Origin: an uncultured Thermodesulfobacteriota bacterium
GTDB lineage: Bacteria > Desulfobacterota > DSWW01 > CAZFWM01
DNA: 42,147 nucleotides
Assembly (NCBI GenBank): GCA_964522545.1
Contig: CAZFWM010000015.1
Coordinates: 1 to 42,147, forward strand
Direction: 5' to 3'
The position numbers and the translations under genes are program-made. Position 1 is the stretch's first letter. Every line of letters starts with the position of its first letter. Shown here piece by piece: positions 19,913 to 39,502 of this stretch. The notes beneath the pieces are model-generated. The model saw only the letters and a program-made list of their open reading frames with translations, had not been told where the DNA came from and ran no database searches.

Positions 19913-20000
19913 AAATCACGGCTCTAGGATTTGCCCCTTTCGCCTCTAATCCCGCACAAAGCCTACGTTCTTCACCCTCCCGACCCTCTCCCGAAAAGGC

Positions 20001-20016: not shown

Positions 20017-20103
20017 AGCTGGGCTTTGACTTATACACCCGTTCAAGCGATCACGAAGGCTATGAAGAACGCGATTCCGACAAAGGGATGAGAGGGAAAT
20101 AGA

Positions 20104-21492: not shown

Positions 21493-21497
21493 TCGAG

Positions 21498-21839
21498 ATG
21501 AAGTTGATCGTCGCCATGATTCAGCCCCACATGTTGCCTGCCGTAAAAAAGGCCCTTTTCGACGCCCAGGTGTTCAAGATGACGGTGGCCAATTCCCTCG
21601 GGTGCGGAGAACAATCCGGGTACACCGAGACATACAGAGGGGCGGTCGAAGAGGTGGACCTGTTGAAAAAGGTTCGGATCGAGATCGCCGTGAACGAAGA
21701 TTTTGTGGAGCCGACAATCGAGGCCATCACCGAAGGGGCCCGGACCGGTGAGATCGGGGACGGCAAGATCTTCATCCTGGATCTACATGAATGCGTTCGG
21801 ATTCGCACGGGCGAGCGCGGCAGCAAGGCCATCGGATGA
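21498..21839 (+). CDS. glnK: Nitrogen regulatory protein P-II
   Basis: [10 protein letters not shown]…T-loop…[12 protein letters not shown] at 21498 has GGAG 9 nt upstream. Lies 6 nt after the amtB stop (amtB-linked PII). Confidence 0.85.
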
Positions 21840-21846
21840 ACAGCCA

Positions 21847-24665: not shown

Positions 24666-26027
24666 ATGAAAGCAAGAAGAACATTTCTTACAGTTAGTTT
24701 GCTTTTGGGTTGCTTTCATCTGTTTTCGCTCACATCGGTTCTGGCCCAGGAGATGGGCTATCCCAATATTGCCCCCAAAAAGCTGGAGATCAAAAGGGGC
24801 TATACCCCTGATGCCTTGAAGTGTATTGAGTGCCATGCCAAAGAGACATCTGGTATCGTAGCGGCTTGGAAGACCAGCCGGATGGCTCATGCAGGAGTTT
24901 CCTGTTATGACTGTCATGTAGTACATAAAGGCTCTTCCATGGCCAGCCAGTGTGATGGGATAAAGGATACCCGGCCGAAAATCCATACCTCTCCGATGGT
25001 GAGCCCTAAGACGTGCGAGAGATGCCACCCTTCCGAGGTAGAGCAGTTTTCCAAGAGCTCTCATGCCCAGCTTGCCGGCGCCCCGGTAATAGAAAAGTCT
25101 GAATTTCATCATCTTATGTATGAGCTGGAAGGCGGCATATTTATGGGTATGCCGGAAGGTGACAAGCGTACCCTCGCTTCCAGGGAATCCGGGTGCCAGA
25201 TGTGCCACGGTACGGAGGTTGAGCTCAAGCCCGATAATAAACCGACGGATGATAGCTGGCCGAGTGGTATCGGCGCTCGCTATCCTGATGGCGGTATAGG
25301 CAATTGTACCTGCTGTCATAATCGGCATGAATTCAAAATTTCCGGAGCCAGGAAACCCGAGGCCTGTGCCAAATGTCATATGGGACCGGACCATCCCGAC
25401 ATTGAAATTTATTACGGAAGTAGTCACGGCCAGCTTTATCTGGCTTCGGGTGATGAGTGGAGGTGGGATAGTGCCCCTGACACCTGGGAGCCTGGTGATT
25501 ATATCGCACCCACTTGTGCCACATGTCACATGAGTGGGATTGGTGATCTGGGCACTACTCACAATGTCAACGAGCGGCTGATGTGGGACCTGGCGCATGT
25601 CAAGAGTGTGGTTCGAAGCGGCGAGCGCGGTAAGGGCGAAAAAGGACGCGAGCTCATGATGAAGGTCTGTAGTAACTGTCACAGCAAGGTTCATATTGAT
25701 AGCCACTTTGCTGGGCTGGCCAGAGCAATTGGACTCTACAATTTTTATATAGATGGAGCTCAGGAGATGATGGACGCTCTCAATGGAAAAGGGCTTCTGA
25801 AGAGCGACAAATGGAACGATCCATTTCAGAAACTCTTTTACTATCTCTGGCACCATTCAGGACGAAGGACCCGTCATGGTGCTGCCATGGCCGGCCCGGA
25901 TTATGCCCATTGGCATGGCTTCTTCCAGATGTTCCAGATGTACAAGGATATGCAGGAAATTTACGACTGGCGAAAACAGAACAATAAGATCGAGGCCCTT
26001 AGCCCGGTTATGCTGACGCTTCCATAG
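24666..26027 (+). CDS. hao: Octaheme cytochrome c of the hydroxylamine oxidoreductase (HAO) family
   Basis: 453 aa with a signal peptide and eight CxxCH motifs (CIECH, CYDCH, CERCH, CQMCH, CTCCH, CAKCH, CATCH, CSNCH). Size and heme spacing fit HAO/epsilon-Hao-type octahemes. Confidence 0.7.
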
Positions 26028-26162
26028 ATATGGATATATAAGTGCGACGATTGTGCACAGGGAGAACAAAGTCTTGAGATACTCAAACAAAAGATCGGGT
26101 TTTCTGGCCTTTGGTGTTGTGGGTCTTGTTATTGTGTCTTATGCAAATTTACAGCCTGGTCC

Positions 26163-26570
26163 TTGGCGTATACCTCTTCTGAAGAATTCTGCACCAACTG
26201 CCATGAGATGATGTACCCTTATAGAGGCTGGAAGGCATCTTCTCACTATGACAACCGGTCCGGAGTGATGGCAAGTTGCGCGGATTGTCATCTGCCTCCG
26301 GATATAGTCTCTATGATCAAGGTAAAGATCATAACAGGCACAAGAGATACATTTGTACATTATCTTGGAAATCCAGAAGGGCTTGATTTCGATGAATTGG
26401 CTAAAAAGGCAAGAAAAAATATTGCAGACGTTTCATGTGTTAAATGTCACAAGAATCTCTTTCCGACCTGTATTACGAAAGGTGGACTCATAGCGCACAG
26501 GGCATGGCAACGGGGTGTAGAGAAAAAATGCGTAGACTGCCATGTAAATCTTGTACATACACAATCGTAG
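26163..26570 (+). CDS. NapC/NirT/NrfH-family tetraheme cytochrome c (heme domain). The predicted N-terminal membrane anchor lies in the -1 frame (about 26053..26160)
   Basis: Four CxxCH motifs (CTNCHE, CADCHL, CVKCHK, CVDCHV). TSSEEFCTNCHEMMYPYRGWKASSHY matches the NapC signature. The TM helix RSGFLAFGVVGLVIVSYANL is encoded in the other frame upstream, giving an apparent -1 frameshift around 26145..26160. Confidence 0.7.
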   Translation: MAYTSSEEFCTNCHEMMYPYRGWKASSHYDNRSGVMASCADCHLPPDIVSMIKVKIITGTRDTFVHYLGNPEGLDFDELAKKARKNIADVSCVKCHKNLFPTCITKGGLIAHRAWQRGVEKKCVDCHVNLVHTQS

Positions 26571-26649: not shown

Positions 26650-26680
26650 TTGACACGGAATCTGATTTGAAGCTATATTT
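26650..26680 (+). promoter_or_regulatory. Sigma-70-like promoter (TTGACA-N17-CTATAT / TATATT) for the GltD-like oxidoreductase gene
   Basis: TTGACA at 26650..26655. TATATT-like -10 at ~26673..26680. Confidence 0.4.
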
Positions 26681-26735: not shown

Positions 26736-28694
26736 TTGAAGACCACAGGCACCATGGATATGAACACTCAGAACTTCCGTGTCCGGGTCCCGGACAGCAA
26801 CTACTGGCGGGAGATCATTTCCTGCCAGAATGCATGTCCGGTCCATACCGACGCGCGTGGCTACGTACGGGCCATTGCGAGTGAGCAATACGAGCTGGCG
26901 TATCTTATCGCACGGGGGCCGAATCCGCTCGCATCGATCTGCGGCAGGGTGTGCGGAGCGCCATGTGAGCTGGCCTGCCGGCGAAGCCACTGGGACGAAG
27001 CGGTCGCCATTCGAGCGCTGAAGCGGTATGTATGCGAACGATTCGGCCCCGAGGCCCGGAAGGAAGAGGGGGAGGGCCTGATCGAGTTTCTCAAAAGGGC
27101 CTCTCGGAGTTACGGGCCGCGACAGTGTCAGGGCAAGGAGGAGCTCCTGCCACTTCTCCAGTCATTGACCGGCGAGCGGGTTCCGCGTGTTCAAGGAAAA
27201 AACATAGGCATCATCGGCGGCGGGCCGGCAGGATTGGCGGCAGCGCACGATCTGGCTCTTCTCGGATTCTCGATAACGATCTATGAAATGGAGCCTGTAC
27301 TGGGAGGCATGCTCGCGGTCGGTATTCCGGAATACCGCCTCCCTCGTGACATCATCCAGGCCGAAGTGGAGGTGATCCTTGCGTTGGGCGTAAAAGTGGT
27401 CACCAGCTGCTGCGTTGGGCGTGACATCTCGTTCCCTGAGGTAAGAGAACGGCACGACGCTGTGGTCGTCGCCGTGGGGGCGAAGCGATCGCGCGAGATC
27501 TCCCTTCCCGGTGGAGATGCCAAGGGTGTCTTCGGCGGAGTTGAATTCCTTCGGGACGTCTCCCTGGGGAATGCTCCACAACTCGGCCGGCGAATCATAG
27601 TCATCGGCGGAGGGGATGCCGCCATGGATTCGGCCCGCACCGCCCTGCGAGTCGGAGCCGGACATGGCGAACGAGAACAATCAGAACAATACCTCGCCAT
27701 GGACGCCGCTCATACGGCCTCGCGCTTCGGGGGCAGGGAGATCAATGTCGTCTATCGCCGGTCTCTCGTGGAGATGCCTGCCTTGCGGGAGGAAGTCCGC
27801 GGGGCCGAGGAGGAGGGGGTCCGGTTCCATCTCCTGACCAATCCGGACCGTATCGAGAAAGATGAGCATGGTGAAGTACGGGGCATGTGGTGCAGAAAGA
27901 TGAAGCTGGGCGAACCGGACGCGAGCGGTCGCAGGCGGCCCGTCCCCATTGAAGGATCGGATTTCTTCCTGGAGTGCGACAATGTGCTCATCGCGATCGG
28001 CCAGGACTTCGAACTGTCTTTCATAGAGGCCGAGCGCGATGGTCTTCAGGCCAGGGACGGGATCATCTCCTGTGATCCCGAGACCGGAAGCACATCGGCT
28101 CAGGATGTCTTTTTGGCCGGCGACCTGGCCTACGGCGCGAAGTTGTTGATCCATGCGGTAGCTTCGGGGAAGGCGGTCGCCCGCACACTTTATGAAAAGT
28201 TCACGGGCCATCCGATCAAGGCGGAAGATCTGGAGTTGCACTTCCCCCTGCCGTCGTTCGAGCGGGAGAGTGGGTACGAACAGCTATCCCGCCTCGCCCC
28301 GCGCACGGCTTCCGTCGATGAGCGCATCGCCGGCCTCGATAAACCGGTGGAGCTGGGTTTTACGACCGAGCAGGCCCCCTGTGAGGCGAGTCGATGTCTC
28401 GACTGCGGGGTCAACACGATTTTCGACAGCAGGGAGTGCATTCTCTGCGGCGGCTGTGCGGATGTATGTCCGTCCCTGTGCCTCAGGCTGGTATCCCTCG
28501 AACGCCTGGACAAAGAAAATCCGCAGTTGCAGAACACAATCAGGGACCGTTTCCCCGATGCGGAATTGAGCGAGCATTCTTCGATCATCAAGGATGAGGA
28601 CAGGTGTATACGCTGCGGGCTCTGTGAGGAGAGATGCCCGACCGGCGCAATCACAATGGAGAGGTATTTATTTCATGAGGCGGTTGGTGTGTGA
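26736..28694 (+). CDS. NAD(P)H-dependent FAD/Fe-S oxidoreductase of the glutamate-synthase small-subunit (GltD/SudA/NfnB) family with two C-terminal 4Fe-4S ferredoxin motifs
   Basis: 652 aa. N-terminal Cys cluster (CQNACPVHTD…CGRVCGAPCELAC). Two Rossmann motifs (GIIGGGPAGLAAA; IVIGGGDAAMDSA). C-terminal CLDCGVNTIFDSRECILCGGCADVCP and CIRCGLCEERCP. Confidence 0.7.
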   Translation: MKTTGTMDMNTQNFRVRVPDSNYWREIISCQNACPVHTDARGYVRAIASEQYELAYLIARGPNPLASICGRVCGAPCELACRRSHWDEAVAIRALKRYVCERFGPEARKEEGEGLIEFLKRASRSYGPRQCQGKEELLPLLQSLTGERVPRVQGKNIGIIGGGPAGLAAAHDLALLGFSITIYEMEPVLGGMLAVGIPEYRLPRDIIQAEVEVILALGVKVVTSCCVGRDISFPEVRERHDAVVVAVGAKRSREISLPGGDAKGVFGGVEFLRDVSLGNAPQLGRRIIVIGGGDAAMDSARTALRVGAGHGEREQSEQYLAMDAAHTASRFGGREINVVYRRSLVEMPALREEVRGAEEEGVRFHLLTNPDRIEKDEHGEVRGMWCRKMKLGEPDASGRRRPVPIEGSDFFLECDNVLIAIGQDFELSFIEAERDGLQARDGIISCDPETGSTSAQDVFLAGDLAYGAKLLIHAVASGKAVARTLYEKFTGHPIKAEDLELHFPLPSFERESGYEQLSRLAPRTASVDERIAGLDKPVELGFTTEQAPCEASRCLDCGVNTIFDSRECILCGGCADVCPSLCLRLVSLERLDKENPQLQNTIRDRFPDAELSEHSSIIKDEDRCIRCGLCEERCPTGAITMERYLFHEAVGV

Positions 28695-28720: not shown

Positions 28721-30148
28721 TTAACCGTCACCAACTTCCTTACTTGATAGCGTCCTTATATAAGTAATCAAATCCACGATATTCTGATCCGGCAATCCCA
28801 CGCCCTCCTTGCCAAAAGCCGCCATATGGGTTCCTTCCCTTCCATCGCGCACTGTCACTGCGAGAAAGGCGGGGTCGATCTCCTTTTGCACCAACGGATT
28901 TCTCAGGTTGAGTCCGACGCCTCCCTCCCCCTTCCCGCCGTGGCAACTCACACAGCGAACTCGAAACAACTCTTCACCATACTCCACGTCGCCGTTGTAC
29001 CTTGCGAACTCGAACGCTTCCGGCTTTTCGCCCGCAGGCCTGTCTCTCGTCACATACTCGATGATCTTATCGATGCCTTCATCCGGAATCCCCGCGGCGG
29101 ATGTCTTCCAGGAGGTCATCGGCGTGCCCGCCCTCCCTTCGGATATGAGCATCTTGAGTAAACGGTCATCCGCAGCCTTCAGGAATGAGGGATTCATGAT
29201 TGCGGGGATGGTTCTTTTGAATACCTCGTCATAAATGCTGTCTTTCCCTGTCAAATGACAGGCGACACAGTACATTTTGTACAGGGCCTCACCATCATTC
29301 CAAGTCTCTTCTAAGTCTCGAGCTTCCCTTATGCGTCTGTATTCTCTGGGCGCCTCATCAGACTTCAGCGATAATACGTAGGTTGTCAGGAGATCGGATT
29401 CCTCATCTGAGAGATTCGCCAGCATCTCGCTTTCGAGGACGATATTTCTCGGGTCATCGAAGTGCTCTTTCAACCATGTATAGAGGGTTTTTTCTCCCTC
29501 TATATATTTCATGGGAAAATGGGCGGCCGGTTGAGAGCCGACGCCGTCGAGGGAATCGCCCAGCACGCCTCCGACGCCATCAAGTTTGTGACAGCCTTTG
29601 CACCCGCGATCCCTGAACAGCCGCTCCCCCCTGACGATCTTGTCCACTCCGATGCTCATTAACATTTCGAGGTCATGACAAGACGCACAAGAGCTTTGAA
29701 TGAAATCAAATGGTGTAATCGGCTTATCCCAATGGGTTTCATGGCCGACTCCATGTGCCTCTTTTTTGTTGGTAGCACGACCTTGTCCATTATGGCAGAT
29801 CGTGCACCCATATCGATCCACCGGATGAAATTCGAGATAATCGCCGCTATGTTGTTTGAGAGGCAGCTCGGCCCCGGCCATCAGCGGATTTTCCACGCCC
29901 AGGTGGCAGTTCGTGCAGCGATCCACTCTCTCCAAACTGTCGAGATAGATCTGCTGAATCTCCAGTTTCAGCGTCTTCGCTTTTTCCCGCAATTTGTCGT
30001 CTTTGGTCCTTTCGATCAATTGTTCCTTGTACTCCTTCTGGTACCCCATCCATTCGGGCCGTGCCGATTCATACCCGGCAAACAGGCTATATATCAAAAG
30101 AACCGCCCCGGACAGGAGCATCATCCATGTATAGAATGTTTTATACAT
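28721..30148 (-). CDS. Membrane-anchored hexaheme cytochrome c (last gene of the Rieske/cyt b-Mo-enzyme operon)
   Basis: 475 aa. N-terminal TM helix. Six CxxCH motifs (CTNCH, CTICH, CASCH, CKGCH, CVACH, CVSCH). The last two sit in class-I-like cytochrome c domains. Confidence 0.7.
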   Translation of the reverse strand: MYKTFYTWMMLLSGAVLLIYSLFAGYESARPEWMGYQKEYKEQLIERTKDDKLREKAKTLKLEIQQIYLDSLERVDRCTNCHLGVENPLMAGAELPLKQHSGDYLEFHPVDRYGCTICHNGQGRATNKKEAHGVGHETHWDKPITPFDFIQSSCASCHDLEMLMSIGVDKIVRGERLFRDRGCKGCHKLDGVGGVLGDSLDGVGSQPAAHFPMKYIEGEKTLYTWLKEHFDDPRNIVLESEMLANLSDEESDLLTTYVLSLKSDEAPREYRRIREARDLEETWNDGEALYKMYCVACHLTGKDSIYDEVFKRTIPAIMNPSFLKAADDRLLKMLISEGRAGTPMTSWKTSAAGIPDEGIDKIIEYVTRDRPAGEKPEAFEFARYNGDVEYGEELFRVRCVSCHGGKGEGGVGLNLRNPLVQKEIDPAFLAVTVRDGREGTHMAAFGKEGVGLPDQNIVDLITYIRTLSSKEVGDG

Positions 30149-30181
30149 TTTCCCTCAATCCTGTATTACCCCACCGTTACT

Positions 30182-30865
30182 TCAACAGGTAAGCTCATCC
30201 CCTCTTACGCCGCGGTAAGGGTCACGACTCAGCTCCTTGTTAAAAAGGGAGCTGTCCAAGCCGAATCTCTCACAATCGAGTTTCAAGACCGACTCGAGGA
30301 GTTTTGCTAGTCTCTGATAAAAGCCATCGCCCTCAAGCGCTTGAACCTGGCTACAAAAGAAAAATCCCCATGTTGCAAGGTGTTCCTTGAAAAACTTGAT
30401 TCTTGCATCTCGAACGATCCTTGTATGTTCTTGCTGTCTCTCCAGCCTAGAATACGCCTCTTTCCATTCGAGGATCGCCATGAATTCAAGTTCGACGGAT
30501 ATGTGGTCCAGGGCCTCCTTATTGTTTCTGTCTTCGTCGAGATGAAAGCCGAATGCGCTGTAGAAACCAGCTATGTCAGCGAGTTCAAAAGGTTTTCTCG
30601 ATACCTTTTCTTTCATGTATTCTGTCTCGTATGGGGATATCTCTCTGCCGATGTCAAAAATAGAGAGATATTCGGACTTCACATCGTCAATTCTATGCGC
30701 CTTCTCGAGAAAGTATTCCTTGAAACGCTTCATCTCCGACAACATTTTGTCATCGAAGATAATTTCATCCATCATGAGGAGTTTTTCGAGAATCGCCCAG
30801 TTCTTTTCATCAGGATATGAGAGTCCGAGAGAGAGGATCTTGTAACTGTACAGGAAGTCGATCAT
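30182..30865 (-). CDS. TorD/NarJ-like redox-enzyme maturation chaperone
   Basis: ATG at 30865..30863 overlaps the upstream gene's TAA by 1 nt (TAATG), suggesting translational coupling. ~227 aa all-helical protein with TorD/NarJ/EbdD-like spacing. The ORF-track start at 30943 carries a Gly-rich extension. Confidence 0.5.
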   Translation of the reverse strand: MIDFLYSYKILSLGLSYPDEKNWAILEKLLMMDEIIFDDKMLSEMKRFKEYFLEKAHRIDDVKSEYLSIFDIGREISPYETEYMKEKVSRKPFELADIAGFYSAFGFHLDEDRNNKEALDHISVELEFMAILEWKEAYSRLERQQEHTRIVRDARIKFFKEHLATWGFFFCSQVQALEGDGFYQRLAKLLESVLKLDCERFGLDSSLFNKELSRDPYRGVRGDELTC

Positions 30866-31749
30866 TACTCTTCTACCTCCACCTCCGCCCATGCGGGGCT
30901 CACGGCCTTTCTTCCCCCCGTCTCCATCCGGCTCCCCTCCCAAACAGCGAACGCAATGGGCATTTTTTTCCCCACCTTGAACTGACAGCTCTCCTGATCA
31001 TTCACGCTGAGCGCCCTCCTGAAGATGACCGTCCATTCACCATTCTCCCAGCCGGCTTCACCGGAAGCATTCTCGACCTTCTTTGATTCAATCGTTCCGG
31101 GGCCGGCCGAGGATAATTCCACAACGATGCCTTTCCTGGAAAAGGAGACGGGATTTTTTGCCGCCCTTCCTGGAATGAACAGGTCCTTCTCGGCCTGCGT
31201 TTTTTCAGTCCCCTCCCCCTCAACGACGTAATCAAAAGTATAGAGATCCGATGTCATATTCGGATAGGCGGTCTTGGTCGTCTGAAATCCACTTTCCTTA
31301 TCCCTGCTCCTCCAGGCCTTCCAGTACATTATATAAACGGCTTTGTCCGACTCCCCCATAAAGAATTCCGGAACGGCGTCTTTGCTTACCGGAAACTGAA
31401 TTGAAGCGCCGTCGGAAAAGTTCATGAGCTTGATCTCGTCATCCTTTGTTGCGTCCCTCCATATCAATCTGAACGCGATATACTCACCGTCGTGGATGGA
31501 CTGGACAAGGACCTCTGTAACACCGACCTCGGCGGGCTTGGGTTCCTCGAGAAACTGTTCCTGCAGAATCTGTTTGTAAGGCTTTATCGCGTTCCACACA
31601 TCATCATGGAGGTCCACCGTACGGACATCGAGATCGGCCCGGTATGAAGTGAACTCGACAAACTGTTTTCTCTCCGCCCTGGCCATAGTCGCAACCATCG
31701 CCATACAAAAGGAGAGATATAGTATTTTTTTTAACATAGGCGGCCTCAC
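30865..31749 (-). CDS. Periplasmic gamma subunit of a type II DMSO-reductase-family enzyme (EbdC/NxrC-like putative heme b subunit)
   Basis: 294 aa. Signal peptide MKKILYLSFCMAMVATMARA. Soluble beta-rich protein immediately downstream of the NarH/NxrB-like gene, where NarI would otherwise be. The family assignment is by context and size, not by a recognised motif. Confidence 0.45.
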   Translation of the reverse strand: MRPPMLKKILYLSFCMAMVATMARAERKQFVEFTSYRADLDVRTVDLHDDVWNAIKPYKQILQEQFLEEPKPAEVGVTEVLVQSIHDGEYIAFRLIWRDATKDDEIKLMNFSDGASIQFPVSKDAVPEFFMGESDKAVYIMYWKAWRSRDKESGFQTTKTAYPNMTSDLYTFDYVVEGEGTEKTQAEKDLFIPGRAAKNPVSFSRKGIVVELSSAGPGTIESKKVENASGEAGWENGEWTVIFRRALSVNDQESCQFKVGKKMPIAFAVWEGSRMETGGRKAVSPAWAEVEVEE

Positions 31750-31756
31750 ACTCTGC

Positions 31757-32893
31757 TTACGGTGTATTGTGTCTGTAAGCTACAAGCCTTTCGTCGAAGA
31801 ATTCCCTCTCGATGATCGGCTCTGTTATCGGGACCTTGATGATTTCCCGCCCTTTATCGTCGTAGCCGTATGCGTTTTCCCGATCCACTCGAAACGAATG
31901 AAGGATCCTCTCCATGCTGCCGATGAGTACAAGAAGTCCCTGGAGTATCTGATCGTCCTTGATGTTCTTGTACGTCTCGATGGCGGCCGCTGTCCCGGGT
32001 CCGAACATCTGCTCGAGATAGGGAAGGGGCACGTGAATCGGCGGGATAAAATAAATGTTCGGTTCCAGTCCGAATTGGGGATAAAGCGGGAGAGCGAGCT
32101 TTCTCTCGTGGATCAAGTAGTCCAAGGGATTGTCTTTTCTTGCCCTGTCAGGTGTGCTCACGAAGCCATGGATCCTGATCTTGCCGATGCAGTTCGTCAC
32201 ACACTGAGTCATCTCGCCTTGCTCGATCTTCGGATAGCAGCCGACGCACTTCTCACTGATCCTCGTTTCGACATTGAACATGGACTTCTTATAAGGGCAT
32301 GAACGGACGCACTCCCTGTATCCGCGGCATCGTGCCTGGTCAATGAGAACGACGCCGTCCTCGGGCCTTTTGTAGATGGCCTTTCGCGGGCAGGCCGCAA
32401 GGCAGGCGGGATATGTACAGTGCGCGCATGTCTTCTGGAGGTAAAACATCCATATTCTGTGGGGTAGTGTCGCTATCCAATCGCCCCTGTTGATCAAGCC
32501 GGACACTTCATCCTCCCCGATGTTCGGATAGGCCCAGTCTTCTTCCTCAGCTACGTGCTGGAGTATTTTTTCGTCCTTTTGCGCGGCTTCAAACAGGGTC
32601 TTGCCAACATATTTCTCTCCCTTCCACTCCTGCAGGCCCAGTTTCGATAGAATTCCGAGATCCCAGCCGACGGGATAGCCGCCGTAGGGCTTTGTCTCGA
32701 CATTATTCCAAAACATATATTCCTGGCCCTTGCCCGATGTCCATGTTGTTTTGCATGCCAGTGAGCAGGTCTGGCAGGCTATGCATTTGTTCAGATCAAA
32801 GACGATCGCCCACTGTTTCTTCGGTCGGGTCTGGGGGTACAGGTACGCCACCCGCCTGCCCAATTGCCAGTTATATACTTTTCGCAGCAGCAT
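31757..32893 (-). CDS. Fe-S beta subunit of a Nar/Nxr-type molybdoenzyme (NarH/NxrB-like)
   Basis: 378 aa. N-terminus WAIVFDLNKCIACQTCSLACKTTWTSGKGQEYMFWNNVETKPYGG matches NarH (LDKCIGCHTCSVTCKNVWT…WFNNVETKPG). Further clusters CAHCTYPACLAACP, CRGYRECVRSCPY and CVGCYPK…CVTNC. Confidence 0.8.
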   Translation of the reverse strand: MLLRKVYNWQLGRRVAYLYPQTRPKKQWAIVFDLNKCIACQTCSLACKTTWTSGKGQEYMFWNNVETKPYGGYPVGWDLGILSKLGLQEWKGEKYVGKTLFEAAQKDEKILQHVAEEEDWAYPNIGEDEVSGLINRGDWIATLPHRIWMFYLQKTCAHCTYPACLAACPRKAIYKRPEDGVVLIDQARCRGYRECVRSCPYKKSMFNVETRISEKCVGCYPKIEQGEMTQCVTNCIGKIRIHGFVSTPDRARKDNPLDYLIHERKLALPLYPQFGLEPNIYFIPPIHVPLPYLEQMFGPGTAAAIETYKNIKDDQILQGLLVLIGSMERILHSFRVDRENAYGYDDKGREIIKVPITEPIIEREFFDERLVAYRHNTP

Positions 32894-32909
32894 TTTCCTG
32901 TTCTCTCCC

Positions 32910-35900
32910 TTATTTCTTGACCTTGATGAAGTCGCCTTTCATGAAGGCTTTCATCTTCTCGTCTTCATAGGTCGGCCTGATTTGTTTGGTGACGGGCGTC
33001 CACAGGCCCTTGCCGCCGATCCCACCATCTTCGGCCCTCGCGATTTTCACAAATCCCTCTCTGGGAGCGCCGTTGGCACAATGGATATCCGGCGCAAACC
33101 CTTTTCCGATCGTCTGCCCGAACATATTTTTTCGAATCAGGGAATCCGTCATGAGGGTGGGTCGCAACCATGCCCGCGTGGTGCTTTGATGGCTGCCGTA
33201 TCTGAACATCGACTGGTAGTTCGTCTCCGGATTCTTGGCCAGGCCGTCCTCCCTCGCCTCATGACCTTTCACACTGCCGATCGTGGCAGGGTAACTGTTG
33301 TGCCACATCCGGGTCACACCTCTGGGTGTCCCCGGATAGTACCGAGCCCGGCAAAGGAGCCTTGCAACCTTGTAGTTGCGCTCATCTTCTTTCCACCCTT
33401 TGTAAGGGCGATCGTCGGGGTCGGCATCTATATGGATGTAATCGCCGTCTTCGATCCCCATCTCTCTGGCGTCCAGGGGATTGATGTCCAGGTACATCTC
33501 CATGACAAAGGGCAATCGCCGGTCTCTCCGATAGACATCTCCGAAGGGGCCGAACCATATGGCGACCGCATCCGTATCCGCGGGCGTGGTATGCACTGCG
33601 TGCCGGTATTTCGGCGTGTGCATGATAAACCGGAATCCATCCTCCTTCATCAGGGGGTGTTTCGTCCTGTGCAGTTCATCCACGGACATCTGTATATTCC
33701 TGACCTGCCTTGTCTCTGTGCTCATGTCCTCTGATGAGAAGTTCCAGTCTTCGGGCTTCTTTGGTCGGATCGCCGGATGGCGTTCTCCCACGATTACATT
33801 CGGCTCATAAAACGTCGAATCGATCGCTTCACGATAGACAATCATATTCTCGCCGTGCTCCAGCCATTCCCTCTCGTCCCGGTAGAACTCGAGTCTTCCC
33901 GATTTCGTGTAGTAAGGTTTTCCTTCCTGGGCCTGCTCGAAACTTGAAATGCGCGGATAGGTTCTGTAATTCGCCAGTGCGGGCTTTCCGTTACTGGCAT
34001 CCCTTTCGAGATCCTCGCTCTGATAACCGACCAGGTTGGCTGAAGTGTCAATGATCCGCTGGGTATATACATCGACTCGATTCTCGTGCACGAACTTCCA
34101 GTAGTCATCGTATCGCTTGTCTTTCGTGATCTTTCCAAGGGCATGGCCAATCCCCGCGAGGATCTCGATGTCCGGTTTCGTGTCGAATATTCGCGGCAGG
34201 GGTGTTCTCGGATAGACCTGGACGAAGGGATTGGTGCAGGAGGCCGTAAAATCAAGGTGCTTGAACTCCGCCGGAGCGTCGGCCCCCCATACGATATCGG
34301 AGTACTCGCATGAAGCCGTCCACCAGTAATCCGCCACCGCTATGAACTCGAACTTCGGCAGCGTATTAAAGACGACATCGTAATGGCCCTTCGCGTTTCC
34401 GATCAAGGAGTTGGAGTTTGTGATGAGCATCGCTTTGGAAGGAGTGTTGATGTGCGTCTTGCCCGTGAAAAGATGCCCTCCGACTCTCAGCGGCCTGTCG
34501 CCATAATTGAAATAATGGGCGGATTCATATTTCAAATATTTCTTCTTCGTGATCGCCCCGGTTGGATTCATCTGAATATGAAAAGGGTCCTCGGCCACAT
34601 AATTTCCCATCCCTCCTATGATGGCCGCCCTGTAATTGCCGGCATAGCTCCCTACATTTCCCCCGTAGTATCCAAGGTTCCGTGTCAATGTAGCCAAGAA
34701 TAGGGACGCCCTGTCCTTCAGGTCATTATTGAAATACTGATTGGTGCCCATGCCCATGGCGAAAAGAGTTTGCTCCTTGTTGGCGGCGATCTGTCTCGCC
34801 AGCGATACAATGGCTTCCTTCTGAATCCAGGTAATCTTCGATGCCTGCTCCGGAGTGAAGTTTTTGTCGATATATTCCTTCATGAGATCGAAGACGGGCC
34901 GGACCCGAACCTTTTCCCCTGCTACGGTCGTCACTTCGAATTGCCCTTCCAGGGCGACGTCCTTCGAGAAATCGTCTCCAAAATCATCCCGGCCGACGGC
35001 CATCGGGGCATTCGCCCTGGAATCCCACACGACGTAATCGATCCATTCGTTTGCAATATCCTCCGGAACGAGTTGTTCCGTGTGCTCTTTTGTGGGCAGA
35101 ATTTTTGTTTTTTTCCCGACGATCTTCGTATTGCGATTCGGGACTTTCTTTTTGTATCCCGGCAAGATCTCTTCCGCGCTGAGAAACTTGAGGGTATCCG
35201 TCCTCACAAGAAACGGCAGGTCCGTGTTGCGCTTTGCATGTTCGGCATCGTACAAATTTTCCTTGATGATGACTTGCGACAGACTGAGTGCGAGGGCCGG
35301 ATCGGTTGCCGGCCTGATGACGAGGACCTCGTCCGAATGACAGGCCGTCGACGGATATTCCACGGTGATCGCCACGACCTTGGTCCCCTTGAGCCTCGCT
35401 TCCGTCAACCAGTGTGAATCGGGCATCTTGGTTGAAAGCCAGTTCATCCCCCACAGAAGGATGAGCTTGGCCCTCTCCACGGCGAAAAGCTCGAACTCGT
35501 TGGTCTGCATCCCCGTGACCATGGGGTGTCCCGGGGGAAGGTCCGTATGCCATGTGTAGCTATCCCATCCCCGTCCTCCCAACGCCTTCTCAGGGGGGAC
35601 CCCCCGTATGCTTTGATCCAGCAGAGCGAGCATGTTTGCAAACCTGTAATATCCGAATATCCGTACGGCACCCAAGAAAGCCATTCCGCCCCTGCATTTC
35701 AGGGTCTGGGTGCCCGCTTTGTGGATTGTCTCGACCATCGCAGGGTCGTACCCTTGCCTGTGCAGATACTCGCTCCCTTTGTCTTCCGAATAGGTGACGG
35801 CGATATTGTGAAGAGCCTTTGCCGCCAACGCATAGGCTTCATCCCAGGGAAGCTTCAGCCATTTGTCCTCCCCGCGTCGAAAATATTTCTCCGGGGGCCT

Positions 35901-36464
35901 TGCCGTATTTCGGTCTCTCGGAAAACCATCCTCTACCCACTCTTTGAATCCCTTCCGGACTATGGCCCCTTTTACGCGACGGTCTCCGTAAATCCTCCTG
36001 ACGAGGCCGATGCCCTTCTGGCAGATACGCGGATCCCAGCGGGCGGATGCCCTGTTGCCATATAGGTCGGTTGCTTCGCCGTATCGGTAAGAAGGGCTGA
36101 TCCGAGTTATGACACCGTTTTTGACATGTGCTTTTAGAAGGCAGTTGTGTGTGTCATTGGGCGCACAGAGAAAATGAAACTCCCCGTCGGTTTTATAAAT
36201 GTTCCTGTAAACCTTTTCCCAATCTCTGTCCGGATAGGTCTCGAGGGGATTTTCTGTTTTCGGCTCAAGAAAGGCGAACAGGTCGGGCTCGATCGTCTTC
36301 ATGAGTATTCCCGCACTCGTGCCGGCCGCAAGTGTCAGAAAGGCCCTCCTTGACAGCTGACCCGAGCTCTTATTCGTCCCACCTTCTTTATTGTCCTTTT
36401 CCACAGACAGCTCCTTGTCCTCTAATGAATCGGCCATTGGCTCTTTGACCAGTAGAACTCCCAA
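32910..36464 (-). CDS. Tat-exported molybdopterin catalytic subunit of the type II DMSO reductase family (NarG/NxrA-like periplasmic nitrate reductase or nitrite oxidoreductase alpha subunit)
   Basis: 1184 aa. Twin-arginine signal SRRAFLTLAAGTSAGIL. N-terminal FS0 motif HFLCAPNDTHNC…C (H-x3-C-x3-C-xn-C) characteristic of Nar/Nxr/Ebd-type enzymes. Start may be the internal ATG (MADSLEDK, ~36437). The 5' end overlaps the cyt b gene stop. Confidence 0.75.
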   Translation of the reverse strand: MGVLLVKEPMADSLEDKELSVEKDNKEGGTNKSSGQLSRRAFLTLAAGTSAGILMKTIEPDLFAFLEPKTENPLETYPDRDWEKVYRNIYKTDGEFHFLCAPNDTHNCLLKAHVKNGVITRISPSYRYGEATDLYGNRASARWDPRICQKGIGLVRRIYGDRRVKGAIVRKGFKEWVEDGFPRDRNTARPPEKYFRRGEDKWLKLPWDEAYALAAKALHNIAVTYSEDKGSEYLHRQGYDPAMVETIHKAGTQTLKCRGGMAFLGAVRIFGYYRFANMLALLDQSIRGVPPEKALGGRGWDSYTWHTDLPPGHPMVTGMQTNEFELFAVERAKLILLWGMNWLSTKMPDSHWLTEARLKGTKVVAITVEYPSTACHSDEVLVIRPATDPALALSLSQVIIKENLYDAEHAKRNTDLPFLVRTDTLKFLSAEEILPGYKKKVPNRNTKIVGKKTKILPTKEHTEQLVPEDIANEWIDYVVWDSRANAPMAVGRDDFGDDFSKDVALEGQFEVTTVAGEKVRVRPVFDLMKEYIDKNFTPEQASKITWIQKEAIVSLARQIAANKEQTLFAMGMGTNQYFNNDLKDRASLFLATLTRNLGYYGGNVGSYAGNYRAAIIGGMGNYVAEDPFHIQMNPTGAITKKKYLKYESAHYFNYGDRPLRVGGHLFTGKTHINTPSKAMLITNSNSLIGNAKGHYDVVFNTLPKFEFIAVADYWWTASCEYSDIVWGADAPAEFKHLDFTASCTNPFVQVYPRTPLPRIFDTKPDIEILAGIGHALGKITKDKRYDDYWKFVHENRVDVYTQRIIDTSANLVGYQSEDLERDASNGKPALANYRTYPRISSFEQAQEGKPYYTKSGRLEFYRDEREWLEHGENMIVYREAIDSTFYEPNVIVGERHPAIRPKKPEDWNFSSEDMSTETRQVRNIQMSVDELHRTKHPLMKEDGFRFIMHTPKYRHAVHTTPADTDAVAIWFGPFGDVYRRDRRLPFVMEMYLDINPLDAREMGIEDGDYIHIDADPDDRPYKGWKEDERNYKVARLLCRARYYPGTPRGVTRMWHNSYPATIGSVKGHEAREDGLAKNPETNYQSMFRYGSHQSTTRAWLRPTLMTDSLIRKNMFGQTIGKGFAPDIHCANGAPREGFVKIARAEDGGIGGKGLWTPVTKQIRPTYEDEKMKAFMKGDFIKVKK

Positions 36465-37981
36465 TCCGGCCCTCTCAGCTCTGTGCCGAAGTAAGTGAAT
36501 ATCACATAGCTGAGTAAAAACATGGTAAATACGGCAATGGCCCCCATCCTGGTTGAATCCGTCTTCTTAATGGTCCAGACCGACCAAGCCATCATAAATC
36601 CGACCCAGATCGTTCCCGGATTTACCAGGATAATCAATAATTGAGGGACTTCCGGCCACCAGGTTCTGAGCCAGCCGTAGTTGATGACTATTGCGAGCAG
36701 GCCGATGACGACTGCGGTCCCGACGACAAATGACTTCAGCGCGACGAACCAACCCTGCCGGTTCGAAAACCAGATGCCGACATAGTCTCGCTCTCTGTCG
36801 AGATAGGGAATCAAGGCGAGTCCCAGAAGCGCCAATCCGGGAAGGGCTATGCCGCCCATGAATGCGGAGTAAGACACCAGTTCCTGTAGCCCGAGAAAAT
36901 ACCAAGGGGCCTTTGCTGGATTCTCTGGGATGAGAGGATTGGCGAGCTCCCGAAGTGGTGCGTTGACGTGAAATGCATACACGACCACAGCCGCCAGACA
37001 GAATATGAAGACCGCCGCCTCGGCACGGAGAAGATGGGGCCAGCTCATTACCGTGTTCTCTACATCCTGATCGACTGCAGGGGTTTTGCCATGGGGAAGC
37101 GCCATAAGGCCATAGGTCTTGTGTGTCGAAAATTGCCCTTCCTTCTTTTCAGGGAGCCTTCGATCACCAATGGCCTCGTCCTCCGACTCGAAACCGTCCG
37201 GCCTCGTGAGCCCCCCATCTTTTCTCACTCGCCAGAAATGCACCCCTAAAAGGATGGATATGATGAGCGGAAGAAGCACAATGTGAAGCAAATAGACTCT
37301 GACAAGAGATTCCTGGCCCGGAATCGAGCCTCCGAGAAAAATTTCTTTTGAAGCGCCCCCGACGTCAAAAAAGCCGGTCACCCCAAAAATGTCTGTGATC
37401 TCCTTCGGGGACTGAACGATATTCGCAACAATGACGAACGCCCAGTATGCGAGCTGATCCCATGTCAGCAGATAGCCTGAGAGGTTCAATGCAAAGGTAA
37501 GTACAAGGAGCGCAATCCCGATGAGCCAGTTGAACTCCCTCCCCTTCTTGTATGAGCTGGTGTAAAAGACCCTTGCCATATGGAGTATGACAAAGATGAT
37601 CATCGCCTCCCCGGCCCATTTGTGAATATTTCGCATGAGTCTTCCGGAATAAACAACGTAGCTGATGTCCTTTACGCTGCTGTATGCGTTTTCCACCGAC
37701 GGGTGATAATAGATCATGAGAAGGGCGCCCGAGATGAAAGTGATGATAAGCAGATAGAATGCGATAAGGCCCAGCCCGAGAGTATAGGCCGGCCTTAGTG
37801 TATTCAGATGGGTCCTGACACCCTGGATGTGGAGGAAAAAGTTGTTGACCATAACGGCGGCTCTCGACCTGTCGGATGACGGTCTGCCGCCTCTTAAAAA
37901 AGAGCGTACGAATGATTGCTTAATCGTTTTTATATTTTTTTTGAATGCGTCGATTCCTGACCGGTTCGCCTCAGGCATCAT
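36422..37981 (-). CDS. Cytochrome b of a Rieske/cyt b (bc1/b6f-type) complex, long fused form
   Basis: 519 aa. Helix-B and helix-D bis-His ligands (RNIHKWAGEAMIIFVILHMARVF; YLLHIVLLPLIISILLGVHFWRVR). Additional C-terminal TM helices (subunit-IV-like). Confidence 0.8.
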   Translation of the reverse strand: MMPEANRSGIDAFKKNIKTIKQSFVRSFLRGGRPSSDRSRAAVMVNNFFLHIQGVRTHLNTLRPAYTLGLGLIAFYLLIITFISGALLMIYYHPSVENAYSSVKDISYVVYSGRLMRNIHKWAGEAMIIFVILHMARVFYTSSYKKGREFNWLIGIALLVLTFALNLSGYLLTWDQLAYWAFVIVANIVQSPKEITDIFGVTGFFDVGGASKEIFLGGSIPGQESLVRVYLLHIVLLPLIISILLGVHFWRVRKDGGLTRPDGFESEDEAIGDRRLPEKKEGQFSTHKTYGLMALPHGKTPAVDQDVENTVMSWPHLLRAEAAVFIFCLAAVVVYAFHVNAPLRELANPLIPENPAKAPWYFLGLQELVSYSAFMGGIALPGLALLGLALIPYLDRERDYVGIWFSNRQGWFVALKSFVVGTAVVIGLLAIVINYGWLRTWWPEVPQLLIILVNPGTIWVGFMMAWSVWTIKKTDSTRMGAIAVFTMFLLSYVIFTYFGTELRGPDWEFYWSKSQWPIH

Positions 37982-37987
37982 CTCTCC

Positions 37988-38464
37988 TTATACTGAGACC
38001 TTTAACAGGGTTCCTTGCTTTACTTCCTTGGCCGCATCGACCACCAGGCTGCCATCCACACTCTGACTTATTTCAAGCCATGGCAAGGCTCTCGGTGCAG
38101 GTCCGGCAATAACCTTTCCATCTTGAGTGTATTTCGAGCCGTGACAGGGACACTTGAAACCGGTTTCAGCGATGGCTACTATACAGCCGAGATGTGTGCA
38201 AACACCGGATATGGCGTGGAGCCCGTCACTGTCTGAAAAGATGAAAACCTTTCTGTCGGCGAGTTTTTTCACTGTGCCCACAGGAAAATTCTCGGGTCTG
38301 CCGATCTTGAATTTTCTTGATTTCTCATAAAAAACGTTGGGCTTTGCCATTCTGAGCATCCCGGCTAGAACAGACAGAGATGACAAAATAACGATTCCTA
38401 AAGACGCCAGCCCCAGAACACTTCGTCGTGTCATTCCCGCTTCTTGTTGGGGTTCATCGTTCAT
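37988..38464 (-). CDS. Rieske [2Fe-2S] iron-sulfur protein
   Basis: 158 aa. Tat-like anchor [15 protein letters not shown]. Cluster boxes CTHLGC and CPCHGS. Confidence 0.85.
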
Positions 38465-38592
38465 TGATCCACACTCCCTTGTCGAGTCGCACCGGCAGAG
38501 TCGATGGATGGCTCGGATTCGTCATATTATTTAGATATTTTGTAACGCTGAAACGCTCCCGATACTTTCAATCAGCGCTGGCCTCTACTTGT

Positions 38593-39318
38593 TCATCCGG
38601 TTTCCACCCATGCAAGCTCAACGGCCTGTGGTCCCCCCGTGGTGAACAGGCCGGTGTAAAACCCGATCAGGCCCATTGCCGGGAAGGGGAAGCTTACGGG
38701 CAGATGCAGGGGCGGTTCGATGGCCGGCAGTTGAACGGGCCAGAGCGGGATGATCCGAACCGTCGGGGACGTGAGGATCAGATAGTTCGACCAGGTGGCC
38801 GGCTCCGGCAGGCCCATCGTGAAGTCGAGATGCAGGGATCCGGCCGCATAGGATGCGTCCAGGGAACAGGTGAACACCGCGGTGACGCAGTCCGGATCGT
38901 CCCCGTCGTAGAGGCAGTCCCCGTCGTTGTCGAGAAGATCTTCGCATTCGTCCAGGCAGGCGCTGAGATCGGTCTCCTCGGTGGGAGGGGTCGAGCCGTG
39001 GCATCCGACGCAGGACGTCGGTCCCCCGGCGCACTGGTGATGGCGGGAGAGGCCGCGGTCCTTGTGGCAGTTGTCACAGACTGTCCTCTGCAGGGCCGGG
39101 TTGTACTGGTGGCAGTAGTTGCAGTTGCCCTGGATACAGGTCAGGGGCTCATGGGTCTGGTGCCATGCCTGTCCGGTCGGATGCCCCAGGGCGAACTCAT
39201 GGCAGCCTGAGCAGGAACTGAAGCTCGAATAGGCCATCGCCGAGCCCACAATGGAAAATACGAAGATGAGAGCAAGCAGGGCAATGAACGATTTTCGCGG
39301 TATCATGAATCTCCTCAT
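38593..39318 (-). CDS. Secreted tetraheme cytochrome c with a Cys/Asp-rich motif and the conserved ~90-aa C-terminal domain shared with ORF 2103..2990
   Basis: Signal peptide. Four CxxCH motifs (CSGCH, CNYCH, CDNCH, CVGCH). CLDECEDLLDNDGDCLYDGDDPDC. C-terminus ATWSNYLILTSPTVRIIPLW…GLIGFYTGLFTTGG…LAWVETG. Likely first gene of the Rieske/cyt b operon. The start could be the internal ATG at 39306. Confidence 0.65.
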   Translation of the reverse strand: MRRFMIPRKSFIALLALIFVFSIVGSAMAYSSFSSCSGCHEFALGHPTGQAWHQTHEPLTCIQGNCNYCHQYNPALQRTVCDNCHKDRGLSRHHQCAGGPTSCVGCHGSTPPTEETDLSACLDECEDLLDNDGDCLYDGDDPDCVTAVFTCSLDASYAAGSLHLDFTMGLPEPATWSNYLILTSPTVRIIPLWPVQLPAIEPPLHLPVSFPFPAMGLIGFYTGLFTTGGPQAVELAWVETG

Positions 39319-39449
39319 TTTCCGTGGTCAATGTATTAACCTGACGAGACACACGGTCAGCTAAATCAGTAAAGAATGCATGGGTATTCTGGGATTGAAA
39401 TACTACTATATCAATATATGCTTGTCAAGCATGATATTTGATCCCCCCC

Positions 39450-39502
39450 TTGACGGGAAATCCTCCTCGGGCTATTATTATGTTATTCAATTGATCAATT
39501 GA
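39450..39502 (+). promoter_or_regulatory. Sigma-70-like promoter (TTGACG-N17-TATTAT) followed by a perfect 16-bp palindrome TCAATTGATCAATTGA overlapping the RBS (candidate ArsR-type autoregulatory operator)
   Basis: TTGACG at 39450..39455. TATTAT at 39473..39478. The palindrome at 39487..39502 is its own reverse complement. A second perfect 7-1-7 palindrome ATGCTTGtCAAGCAT lies at 39418..39432. Confidence 0.45.

Follow-up and report, generated by a model that had tools for sequence, protein, structure and literature searches.

The window analysed here, by which the whole stretch of 42,147 nucleotides is meant, belongs to a contig of an uncultured Thermodesulfobacteriota bacterium (CAZFWM010000015.1) and contains a minus-strand operon in which the genes of a molybdoenzyme related to nitrite oxidoreductase (NXR) are placed among those of a Rieske/cytochrome b complex. 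The first-pass annotation of this DNA had described eight co-oriented open reading frames (ORFs) running from 39318 to 28721, all of which are present at the coordinates it gave, and its gene types agree with the families assigned here with Pfam and NCBIfam and with the topology and export signals derived from motif counts and hydropathy. Since every NCBIfam score lies below the curated cut-off, the proteins are diverged members of their families. In the order of transcription, the operon encodes a secreted tetrahaem c-type cytochrome of 241 amino acids (aa) with four CxxCH motifs, a Sec signal and no Pfam family (38593..39318), a Rieske [2Fe-2S] protein (37988..38464) with the boxes CTHLGC and CPCHGSKY and an N-terminal anchor, TRRSVL, that resembles a twin-arginine translocation (Tat) signal, and a cytochrome b fusion (36422..37981) composed of a b6-like part of four helices and a part of five helices similar to subunit IV (SUIV), with the motif APWY. 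These are followed by the alpha, beta and gamma subunits of the molybdoenzyme, namely an NxrA-type catalytic subunit of 1175 aa (32910..36437) for molybdenum-bis(molybdopterin guanine dinucleotide) (Mo-bisMGD) with the motifs SRRAFL, CAPNDTHNC and WHTDLPP, an NxrB-type [4Fe-4S] iron-sulfur (Fe-S) subunit of 378 aa (31757..32893), and a soluble periplasmic haem b subunit of the NxrC/EbdC type and the EB_dh family (30865..31749) with a Sec signal peptide and no transmembrane helix. A cytoplasmic assembly chaperone of the NarJ/TorD type (30182..30865, 227 aa from ATG 30865) and a hexahaem cytochrome c with six CxxCH motifs and an N-terminal transmembrane anchor (28721..30148) complete the series.

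The genes are closely packed. The intergenic gaps measure 6 nt between the Rieske and cytochrome b genes, 16 nt between alpha and beta, 7 nt between beta and gamma, and 33 nt between the chaperone and hexahaem genes; with ATG 36437 as the start of alpha, the cytochrome b and alpha genes have 16 nt in common, and the gamma and chaperone genes share a TAATG overlap. The longest gap, 128 nt, separates the tetrahaem gene from the Rieske gene. The molybdoenzyme genes thus sit between the cytochrome b gene and the hexahaem gene of the Rieske/cytochrome b complex. The best promoter-like site in a scan of the operon region, TTGACA-17-TAGTAT, lies on the minus strand 5' of the first gene (39400..39428) and agrees with the consensus in 10 of 12 positions, which is a consensus match only; a divergent site on the plus strand (39450-39478) faces an ArsR-rhodanese gene. 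Terminator-like sites within the operon are not in excess (19, compared with 16 ± 3.4 in shuffled sequence), and neither the terminator nor the promoter scan found anything above the shuffled controls inside the operon. Because of the overlapping genes, the lack of a terminator excess and a gene order conserved on 10 other contigs, the Rieske/cytochrome b and molybdoenzyme genes are almost certainly transcriptionally coupled, as the first-pass annotation had supposed; separate transcription of the Rieske/cytochrome b genes, which it had raised as the counter-case, left no sign in these scans, in so far as transcription can be predicted from sequence.

The catalytic subunit had been given a TTG start at 36464, but ATG 36437, as in the public gene call P0001, is likelier. 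The twin-arginine signal reported for it is present (SRRAFLTLAAG, residues 28-38 of 1175 aa) and aligns with the KLTRRAFL signal of Kuenenia NxrA. The motif reported for the ligands of the FS0 iron-sulfur cluster, H-x3-C-x3-C, has to be replaced, since alignment with the NarG sequence HGVNCTGSC shows the corresponding residues of the window protein to be CAPNDTHNC, i.e. C-x3-D-x3-C. At this position E. coli NarG has HGVNCTGSC, Haloferax NarG HSVNCTGSC and Kuenenia NxrA CSPNDTHAC. In the crystal structure of Kuenenia NXR, FS0 is held by three Cys and one Asp (among them Cys67, Asp71 and Cys75), Asn70 positions the substrate and Asp275 is a ligand of the molybdenum (PMC8387239). The Asp of WHTDLPP in the window protein aligns with Asp275, so that the Mo ligand is conserved. 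The Asn-Asp motif at FS0 and the substrate is of the NXR type. Both features are nearly invariant in the family, with CAPNDTHNC or CSPNDTHNC in 115 of 117 sequences and WHTDLPP likewise in 115 of 117, Nitrospira included.

When compared with all solved structures, the alpha subunit matched Kuenenia NxrA (7B04) over its full length with 927 bits, followed at a distance by PcrA (184 bits), NarG (109 bits) and EbdA (103 bits). A neighbour-joining tree with Kimura distances was built from 119 sequences, which comprised the window protein, close metagenome proteins, 80 genome loci, Kuenenia NxrA (a partial sequence of 938 aa transcribed from a printed structure-search alignment) and E. coli NarG and Haloferax pNarG as the two outgroups. 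In this tree the NXR-type family was split from both outgroups in 200 of 200 bootstraps. The window protein therefore groups with NxrA and apart from NarG and pNarG, and the clustering with enzymes for substrates other than nitrogen oxyanions that the first-pass annotation had considered was seen neither in the tree nor among the structure matches. Its identity is 60% to the protein of a Nitrospinota metagenome-assembled genome (MAG), 58.5% to Nitrospira japonica NxrA, 47% to a homologue on a Natronococcus plasmid, 41% to Kuenenia NxrA, 30% to Haloferax NarG and 26% to E. coli NarG. As judged from alignment and phylogeny, the molybdoenzyme is a member of the periplasmic Nitrospira/anammox-type NXR family within the type II dimethyl sulfoxide (DMSO) reductase family. 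The Natronococcus homologue is encoded on plasmid 2 of Natronococcus occultus (locus L089, 8001-13302), where genes for beta and a TorD-like chaperone come after the NXR-type alpha gene. This alpha differs from the classical haloarchaeal pNarG, and no coding sequence is annotated for it in the record.

The other subunits are of the same type. The beta subunit has its best match among solved structures in Kuenenia NxrB (7b04_A, 372 bits; PcrB 217, NarH 184), and the gamma subunit in Kuenenia NxrC (7b04_C, 103 bits). In NxrC, haem b is coordinated by Met155 and Lys305 (PMC8387239), and a Met and a Lys of the window gamma subunit align with these two residues. Hidden Markov model searches assigned gamma to EB_dh and the chaperone to the NarJ/TorD type. 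A soluble gamma subunit in place of NarI had been suggested in the first-pass annotation and is borne out by the family, the signal peptide, the lack of a transmembrane helix and the lack of a NarI-like ORF. A canonical NarGHI was considered as well and is ruled out, since no NarI-like ORF is present, alpha carries a Tat signal and has 26% identity to NarG, and gamma is a soluble EB_dh protein.

The Rieske protein of the operon is Kuenenia-like. Its best match among solved structures is Kuste4569 of Kuenenia (9rk4, 97 bits) and its third Kustd1480 (9rk3), compared with 52-58 bits for the Rieske proteins of cytochrome b6f complexes, and its box CPCHGSKY, with a Ser/Tyr pair, is identical to that of Kuste4569. 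The measured potential of Kuste4569 is +303 mV, the Ser/Tyr pair has been linked to high potential, and Kuste4569 and Kustd1480 are the Rieske proteins of the two Kuenenia complexes with an NAD(P) oxidoreductase (PMC12954380). The likeness to Kuenenia Rieske/cytochrome b clusters with NAD(P)H oxidoreductase and a hydroxylamine oxidoreductase (HAO)-family protein that had been pointed out earlier is thus real. The best PDB matches of the cytochrome b are cytochromes b6, and five hydrophobic helices follow the b6 part. The four canonical haem-ligand His (H120, H134, H233 and H248) are invariant, and a Gly stands at the position of the b6 cysteine for haem ci, so that this cysteine is missing. 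The Qo motif APWY is invariant in 119 members of the cytochrome b family. Kao and Hunte described an uncharacterised APWY clade with delta-proteobacterial, Nitrospirales and planctomycete sequences, for which they speculated on reverse operation (PMC4122944). The best NCBIfam matches of the two cytochrome b halves are ExtP (211 bits, cut-off 290) and ExtQ (49 bits, cut-off 150).

Three further His are conserved in the same 119 sequences, H51 in 100%, H58 in 99% and H519 in 97%. H51 and H58 immediately precede helix A, on its cytoplasmic side, and H519 ends the protein; all three are possible ligands of additional haem. In AlphaFold3 models of the Kuenenia complexes, His43 and His62 were proposed as ligands of an extra haem b towards the NAD(P) reductase (PMC12954380), and H51 and H58 appear to be positioned like these two, which is a resemblance and not a test. 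The hexahaem cytochrome consists of an N-terminal tetrahaem module of the c3/c7 type and a C-terminal dihaem module similar to QcrC and CcoP. It is the cytochrome c subunit of the Rieske/cytochrome b complex, because its orthologue directly follows the cytochrome b gene in loci without a molybdoenzyme. Among the representatives of 50%-identity clusters, 320 matched it at E ≤ 1e-30, and many of these are 600-970 aa long; the only organism name returned was 'Deltaproteobacteria bacterium', so that the search does not bear on orthology with Kuste4573 or Kustd1485.

The alpha family is large, with 2756 proteins at E ≤ 1e-50 in the protein database and at least 597 GTDB species representatives that encode a relative. 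Most relatives are from Myxococcota, Bdellovibrionota, Oligoflexia and others, with 56-62% identity to the window protein and an alpha-beta-gamma-chaperone core. Most of the species with close relatives are not known nitrifiers, all NCBIfam matches are under their cut-offs, and the best NCBIfam match of the cytochrome b, ExtP, comes from selenite/tellurite operons and is likewise under its cut-off. These observations would suit an enzyme for another substrate, such as chlorate or perchlorate, selenate, or an organic or sulfur compound, whose NXR-like sequence reflects ancestry and not function. We consider this improbable, as the Asn-Asp motif and the Mo-ligand context are near-invariant and common to Nitrospira, PcrA and EbdA are distant, and the genomic company is one of nitrogen-oxide and assimilation genes (NapAB, NirA-like, HAO-like, Amt, GlnA, and the nosZ exchange described below).

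In every close relative with enough flanking DNA, the nested order of Rieske, cytochrome b, alpha, beta, gamma, chaperone and hexahaem genes was found. It was recovered on 10 other contigs, 11 including the window, with alpha identities of 63-82%. These loci are L001 from 'Ca. Magnetominusculus dajiuhuensis', a magnetotactic member of the Nitrospirota, L002 and L086 from Desulfobacterales MAGs, L004 and L005 from Nitrospirota MAGs, L085, L090 as the basal member (63%), L093 on a contig labelled Dissulfurispiraceae, and L094/L095 as the closest relative (82%). The hosts are thus Nitrospirota of the Thermodesulfovibrionia type and Desulfobacterales. The alpha subunits of the nested loci form one clade with 99% bootstrap support across 37 sequences, in which six nested loci are included directly, L090 and L094/L095 through the alpha proteins P0031 and P0002, and L093 is left out. 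We also considered whether linkage to Rieske/cytochrome b genes is a trait of the whole NXR-like family, and rejected this, since a phmmer search of all ORFs of 76 loci in the 56-62% band found such genes only in L082, where they belong to a different bc-type set about 8 kb upstream of alpha, beside a bd-like oxidase gene. The link is a property of one clade and not of the whole family.

Some loci showed further features. L082 (1425-13438), from a Thermodesulfovibrionales MAG, combines a Nitrospira-like NxrA with the bc-type pair, a multihaem cytochrome and a gene for a cytochrome bd-like subunit I, which recalls the bd-like genes in the NXR clusters of Nitrospira and Kuenenia. A GltD/NfnB-like gene lies directly 5' of an NXR-like alpha gene without Rieske/cytochrome b genes in a Desulfurellales MAG (L060, 6152-11982), and a hexahaem-like gene lies 5' of alpha in L080 (3-5572). 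Just upstream of the cluster in L002, a gene of the MamS/MamX family associated with magnetosomes (5046-5534) was found, with NorB and an Rrf2 regulator nearby.

An aspect that the first-pass annotation missed is that, in the relatives, the operon normally begins with a GltD-like gene. In 8 of 11 loci a gene for an NfnB/GltD-like flavoprotein of 600-640 aa stands at the operon head, overlapping the Rieske gene or directly adjoining it. In the window, the gene for this NAD(P)H-binding Fe-S flavoprotein lies outside the operon and convergent with it (26736..28694, plus strand), with a promoter-like site of its own (26650-26679), and its product is 56% identical to the orthologue of L002. It contains an N-terminal domain for two [4Fe-4S] clusters, a FAD/NAD(P)H part and a C-terminal ferredoxin domain for two [4Fe-4S] clusters, and its best solved relatives are of the NfnB type. 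For L094/L095 no flavoprotein gene was found within 8 kb on either side of the cluster. The place of the GltD-like gene is taken in the window by the tetrahaem gene (38593-39318), for which no homologue was found in any related locus examined. Its product includes a Cys-rich stretch of acidic character (DNDGDCLYDGDDPDC) and ends in a domain of about 90 residues free of haem motifs.

The strongest indication of the direction of electron flow comes from loci in which the same Rieske/cytochrome b module heads nosZ clusters, which had also escaped the first-pass annotation. In L084, L091 and L092 an orthologous operon of flavoprotein, Rieske, cytochrome b and hexahaem genes is present without molybdoenzyme genes; its cytochrome b is 70-72% identical to that of the window, as close as in the NXR-linked loci, and the operon runs on into genes for two dihaem cytochromes c, a clade II nosZ and nosR/D/F/Y. 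The upstream genes of these three loci (a B12-binding protein, URO-D, a GAF histidine kinase and a sigma-54 response regulator) are those of L093, which carries the NXR cassette in place of the nosZ cluster (about 7600-21500 in each of the four loci). This looks like a single locus in which the terminal-reductase cassette is exchanged between NXR and nosZ.

The occurrence of the module with other enzymes (nosZ, and Nap nearby), together with a cytochrome b family far larger than the linked alpha clade, could also mean that the complex is a general quinol:cytochrome c oxidoreductase serving HAO-like, Nap and Nos proteins, and that the NxrABC-type enzyme uses another partner. Such independence of the two systems is very improbable, as the genes of the molybdoenzyme stand between two genes for subunits of the complex, with ORFs that overlap or nearly touch, this exact nesting is kept on 11 contigs at 63-82% alpha identity, and the NxrC-type subunit is soluble with no alternative membrane anchor encoded. 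We consider it highly probable that the Rieske protein, cytochrome b, hexahaem cytochrome and NxrABC-type enzyme form one electron-transfer system that works on the nitrate/nitrite couple.

Nitrous oxide reductase, NosZ, works solely as a reductase, and it is established that a bc complex can supply it with electrons through cytochromes c. In the nosZ loci the module is therefore a donor of electrons from quinol to the periplasm, and by the simplest inference an NXR-type enzyme that shares the operon has the same role of terminal reductase, with nitrate as its substrate. The nosZ-linked module thus shifts the balance to nitrate reduction over nitrite oxidation or reverse operation. The neighbours in the window are reductive or assimilatory and fit nitrate ammonification (an octahaem cytochrome like IhOCC, a NapC-like protein, Amt, GlnA and a NirA-like protein). 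The literature portrays the host lineages (Magnetobacteriaceae, Dissulfurispiraceae) as anaerobes that metabolise sulfur and nitrate, and 'NxrA' was noted in them; in Caldithrix, Rieske/cytochrome b genes lie in a Nap/epsilonHao cluster. The haloarchaeal pNar operon, compared below, matches the gene order of the window and encodes a respiratory nitrate reductase. Context therefore favours reduction, and the enzyme is most likely a nitrate reductase.

According to the mechanism proposed here, the operon products would form a membrane-bound supercomplex or an electron-transfer chain, in which a quinol, possibly menaquinol, would be oxidised at the APWY Qo site. The first electron would pass from the Rieske cluster to the hexahaem cytochrome c, the Met/Lys haem b of gamma, the clusters FS4-FS1 of beta, FS0 and finally the Mo-bisMGD of alpha, where nitrate would be reduced to nitrite in the periplasm. 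The second electron would cross the membrane via haems bL and bH and could either re-reduce quinone in an energy-conserving Q cycle or, where the flavoprotein is present, follow an Fe-S/FAD chain to NAD(P)+. If a Q cycle operates, the periplasmic enzyme would conserve as much energy as NarGHI, an argument that has been made for pNar. As the best explanation in full, the reduction of nitrate by quinol through a dedicated Rieske/cytochrome b complex is held with moderate confidence.

Several points weigh against this explanation. The APWY clade is uncharacterised, with the speculation on reverse operation mentioned above, and the NXR class is reversible in vitro (PMC8387239). With this reversibility, and with nitrite oxidisers on both sides of the clade in the tree (Nitrospira at 58%, Kuenenia at 41%), the direction cannot be read from sequence. 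NapA and NapB genes lie beside the cluster in L086 (2127-5071) and L095 (10430-15845, there with an NrfC/NrfD-like module), so that two enzymes of the periplasmic nitrate reductase type are encoded side by side in these genomes, which could mean that nitrate reduction is already covered. In the window the flavoprotein gene lies outside the operon, and for L094/L095 it is missing over 8 kb or more on each side; the NAD(P)+ branch is therefore not obligatory. Finally, within the Rieske/cytochrome b complex, the Rieske protein was compared with Kuenenia by sequence, and the cytochrome b, cytochrome c and reductase were likened by published description.

Some of these points also speak for the opposite direction, the 'reverse-operating' system of the first-pass annotation, in which the NxrABC-type enzyme would oxidise periplasmic nitrite under anaerobic or microaerobic conditions and pass the electrons via the gamma haem b, the hexahaem cytochrome c and the Rieske protein to a complex running backwards to reduce quinone, driven by the proton motive force or by confurcation, for which the flavoprotein would provide NAD(P)H. 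The family is the only one known for nitrite oxidation in Nitrospira, Nitrospina and anammox bacteria; the window alpha is nearer to Nitrospira NxrA (58%) than Kuenenia NxrA is (44%); APWY has been proposed as a mark of reverse-operating complexes (PMC4122944); and the adjoining NapAB of L086 and L095 already supplies a nitrate reductase. Nitrite oxidation is nevertheless unlikely here, because the orthologous module heads nosZ clusters, where only a donor role is conceivable, the Thermodesulfovibrionia-type and Desulfobacterales hosts are described as anaerobic sulfur and nitrate metabolisers, the window holds no terminal oxidase and its neighbouring genes are reductive or assimilatory. The potential of menaquinone is about -70 to -80 mV (PMC12954380). 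Standard potentials further suggest that the mean potential of nitrite and NAD(P)H as joint donors is more positive than that of menaquinone.

Within the explanation by nitrate reduction, the fate of the second electron allows for a bifurcation of quinol, with one electron going to periplasmic nitrate and the other via the haems b, the extra His-ligated haem and the Fe-S clusters of the flavoprotein to NAD(P)+. We regard this as possible but rather doubtful. In its favour are the Rieske signature of high potential, the additional conserved His of the cytochrome b and the fact that the operon starts with the flavoprotein gene in 8 of 11 loci. Nitrate as acceptor, at about +420 mV, would make it even more favourable than nitrite. 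For the bifurcation in Kuenenia, NAD(P)H was proposed and the energetics were computed with nitrite as acceptor (PMC12954380). If bifurcation takes place, it would be a natural version of a mechanism that was hypothesised and never shown for anammox Rieske/cytochrome b complexes, and it would occur in potentially culturable lineages with nitrate as the driving acceptor, or N2O in the nosZ variant.

The components of the system are each precedented, by NXR-type enzymes, by NarB/NarC of pNar, by the Kuenenia complexes with an NAD(P) reductase and by Rieske/cytochrome b complexes for Nap and Nos. With the NXR of Kuenenia (7B04), Nitrospira and Nitrospina, the window enzyme shares full-length homology of alpha, beta and gamma and a Tat-exported alpha, and with the Kuenenia/Nitrospira type it shares the Asp that binds Mo, the 3Cys/1Asp FS0 with an Asn next to it, and a soluble gamma subunit of the EB_dh family whose haem b ligands are Met and Lys. 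In contrast to the window, the genes of these enzymes are not nested in a Rieske/cytochrome b operon, and the enzymes are physiological nitrite oxidases, whereas the context in the window points to nitrate reduction. The Kuenenia enzyme forms NXR-T tubules in the anammoxosome (PMC8387239). The arrangement had been equated in the first-pass annotation with that of anammox bacteria and Nitrospira, which does not hold, as their NXR is not encoded with Rieske/cytochrome b genes.

The precedent for the arrangement is instead the haloarchaeal pNar operon with NarB and NarC. On pHM300 of Haloferax mediterranei (L088), the genes for the Rieske protein NarB, the cytochrome b NarC, NarG, NarH, the EbdC-like Orf7 and the TorD-like NarJ have the same order as in the window. 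According to the literature, pNar is a proven respiratory nitrate reductase that is sensitive to antimycin, with quinol oxidation by Rieske/cytochrome b and a Q cycle proposed. Both enzymes are Tat-exported, outward-facing molybdoenzymes without NarI. However, the haloarchaeal NarG belongs to another clade (26-30% identity, FS0 motif H-x3-C-x3-C), the two cytochromes b have an identity of only 27%, and neither a hexahaem cytochrome c nor an NfnB-like flavoprotein is present there, so the likeness is one of architecture and not of orthology. Membership of the window enzyme in the haloarchaeal pNar family was examined and is ruled out by phylogeny (100% bootstrap) and the FS0 motif, despite the matching operon architecture.

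The Kuenenia complexes Kuste4569-4574 and Kustd1480-1485 share with the window the Rieske type, a b6-like cytochrome b, a five-helix SUIV-like part, a multihaem cytochrome c in place of cytochrome f/c1 and an HAO-family octahaem cytochrome nearby. An Fe-S flavoprotein similar to NAD(P) oxidoreductases is associated as well, with its gene at the operon head in 8 relatives, adjacent but convergent in the window and absent near L094/L095. They differ in that b6 and SUIV are separate there and fused in the window, in that the window operon contains a complete NXR-type enzyme with its chaperone, and in that the flavoprotein and HAO-like genes of the window are on the opposite strand. A path from quinol through multihaem cytochromes c to a periplasmic N-oxide reductase has been proposed or shown for the Nap-epsilonHao system of Caldithrix abyssi, the bc-dependent NosZ and the Rieske/cytochrome b complexes with pentahaem cytochromes of Methanoperedens; the terminal enzymes of these systems are NapA, epsilonHao, NosZ and an archaeal Nar, and they are without a nested NXR-type enzyme or an NfnB-like subunit. 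Geobacter ExtP and ExtQ (NF040969, NF040970), the best NCBIfam matches of the cytochrome b halves, are separate proteins in another operon context, with scores under the cut-off.

Beyond the operon and the flavoprotein gene, two cytochrome genes lie on the plus strand. The first encodes a secreted octahaem cytochrome of the HAO family with eight CxxCH motifs and a signal peptide (24666..26027), which is closest to the reductive Ignicoccus protein IhOCC (4qo5) with 137 bits, compared with 84 bits for Nitrosomonas HAO; by this resemblance it is probably a nitrite or hydroxylamine reductase that forms ammonium. The second is an apparently frameshifted gene for a tetrahaem cytochrome of the NapC/NirT type (26074..26570, ORF 26163-26570), whose membrane helix (KRSGFLAFGVVGLVIVSYA) is located at about 26080-26160 in another frame, while the frame with the four CxxCH starts at 26163. 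The frameshift is either an assembly error or the sign of a pseudogene; if it is true, the HAO-like protein would be without its quinol dehydrogenase partner. The HAO-like, NapC-like and GltD-like genes had been described as upstream of the operon and convergent with it; they are convergent on the plus strand but lie at its 3' end.

In the regions 9056-13906 and 18326-23262, the window contains genes for a NirA-like ferredoxin-nitrite/sulfite reductase, a weakly matching RIC-like di-iron protein, an Rrf2-family regulator, a porin of the phosphate-selective type, a sigma-54 activator with a GAF domain, the ammonium transporter Amt and the glutamine synthetase GlnA, which make these stretches rich in nitrogen-related genes. 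The guanine-plus-cytosine content is 45-48% up to 8 kb and mostly 52-62% beyond, with 49% in the bin of 30-32 kb. Positions 1-8000 carry a peptidase C10-like gene, a gene for a MopE-like protein with a metal-binding motif and large ORFs without Pfam families, and this low-GC segment may be foreign.

In open-access papers and preprints, no description was found of an enzyme of the NXR lineage nested in an anammox-like Rieske/cytochrome b operon in Nitrospirota or Desulfobacterales, and none in the open-access literature of an alternation between NXR and nosZ at the same locus. The link of periplasmic NXR-type enzymes to the quinone pool and the role of NXR-like enzymes outside nitrifiers are open problems. 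The nested clade offers a genetically hard-wired answer for one lineage, in which the enzyme is plugged into its own Rieske/cytochrome b complex and the exchange with nosZ indicates the direction. For the anammox Rieske/cytochrome b complexes with an NAD(P) oxidoreductase bifurcation has been proposed, with no driving reaction suggested for Kustd1480-1485 (PMC12954380). In the nested clade, a module of this kind shares an operon with the enzyme for a defined high-potential reaction, which makes the anammox hypothesis testable outside anammox enrichments, the more so as the carriers include Thermodesulfovibrionia, Desulfobacterales and Dissulfurispiraceae, a family with a cultured member. Matches to nxrA in metagenomes from anoxic sediments and aquifers should not be taken as nitrite oxidation.

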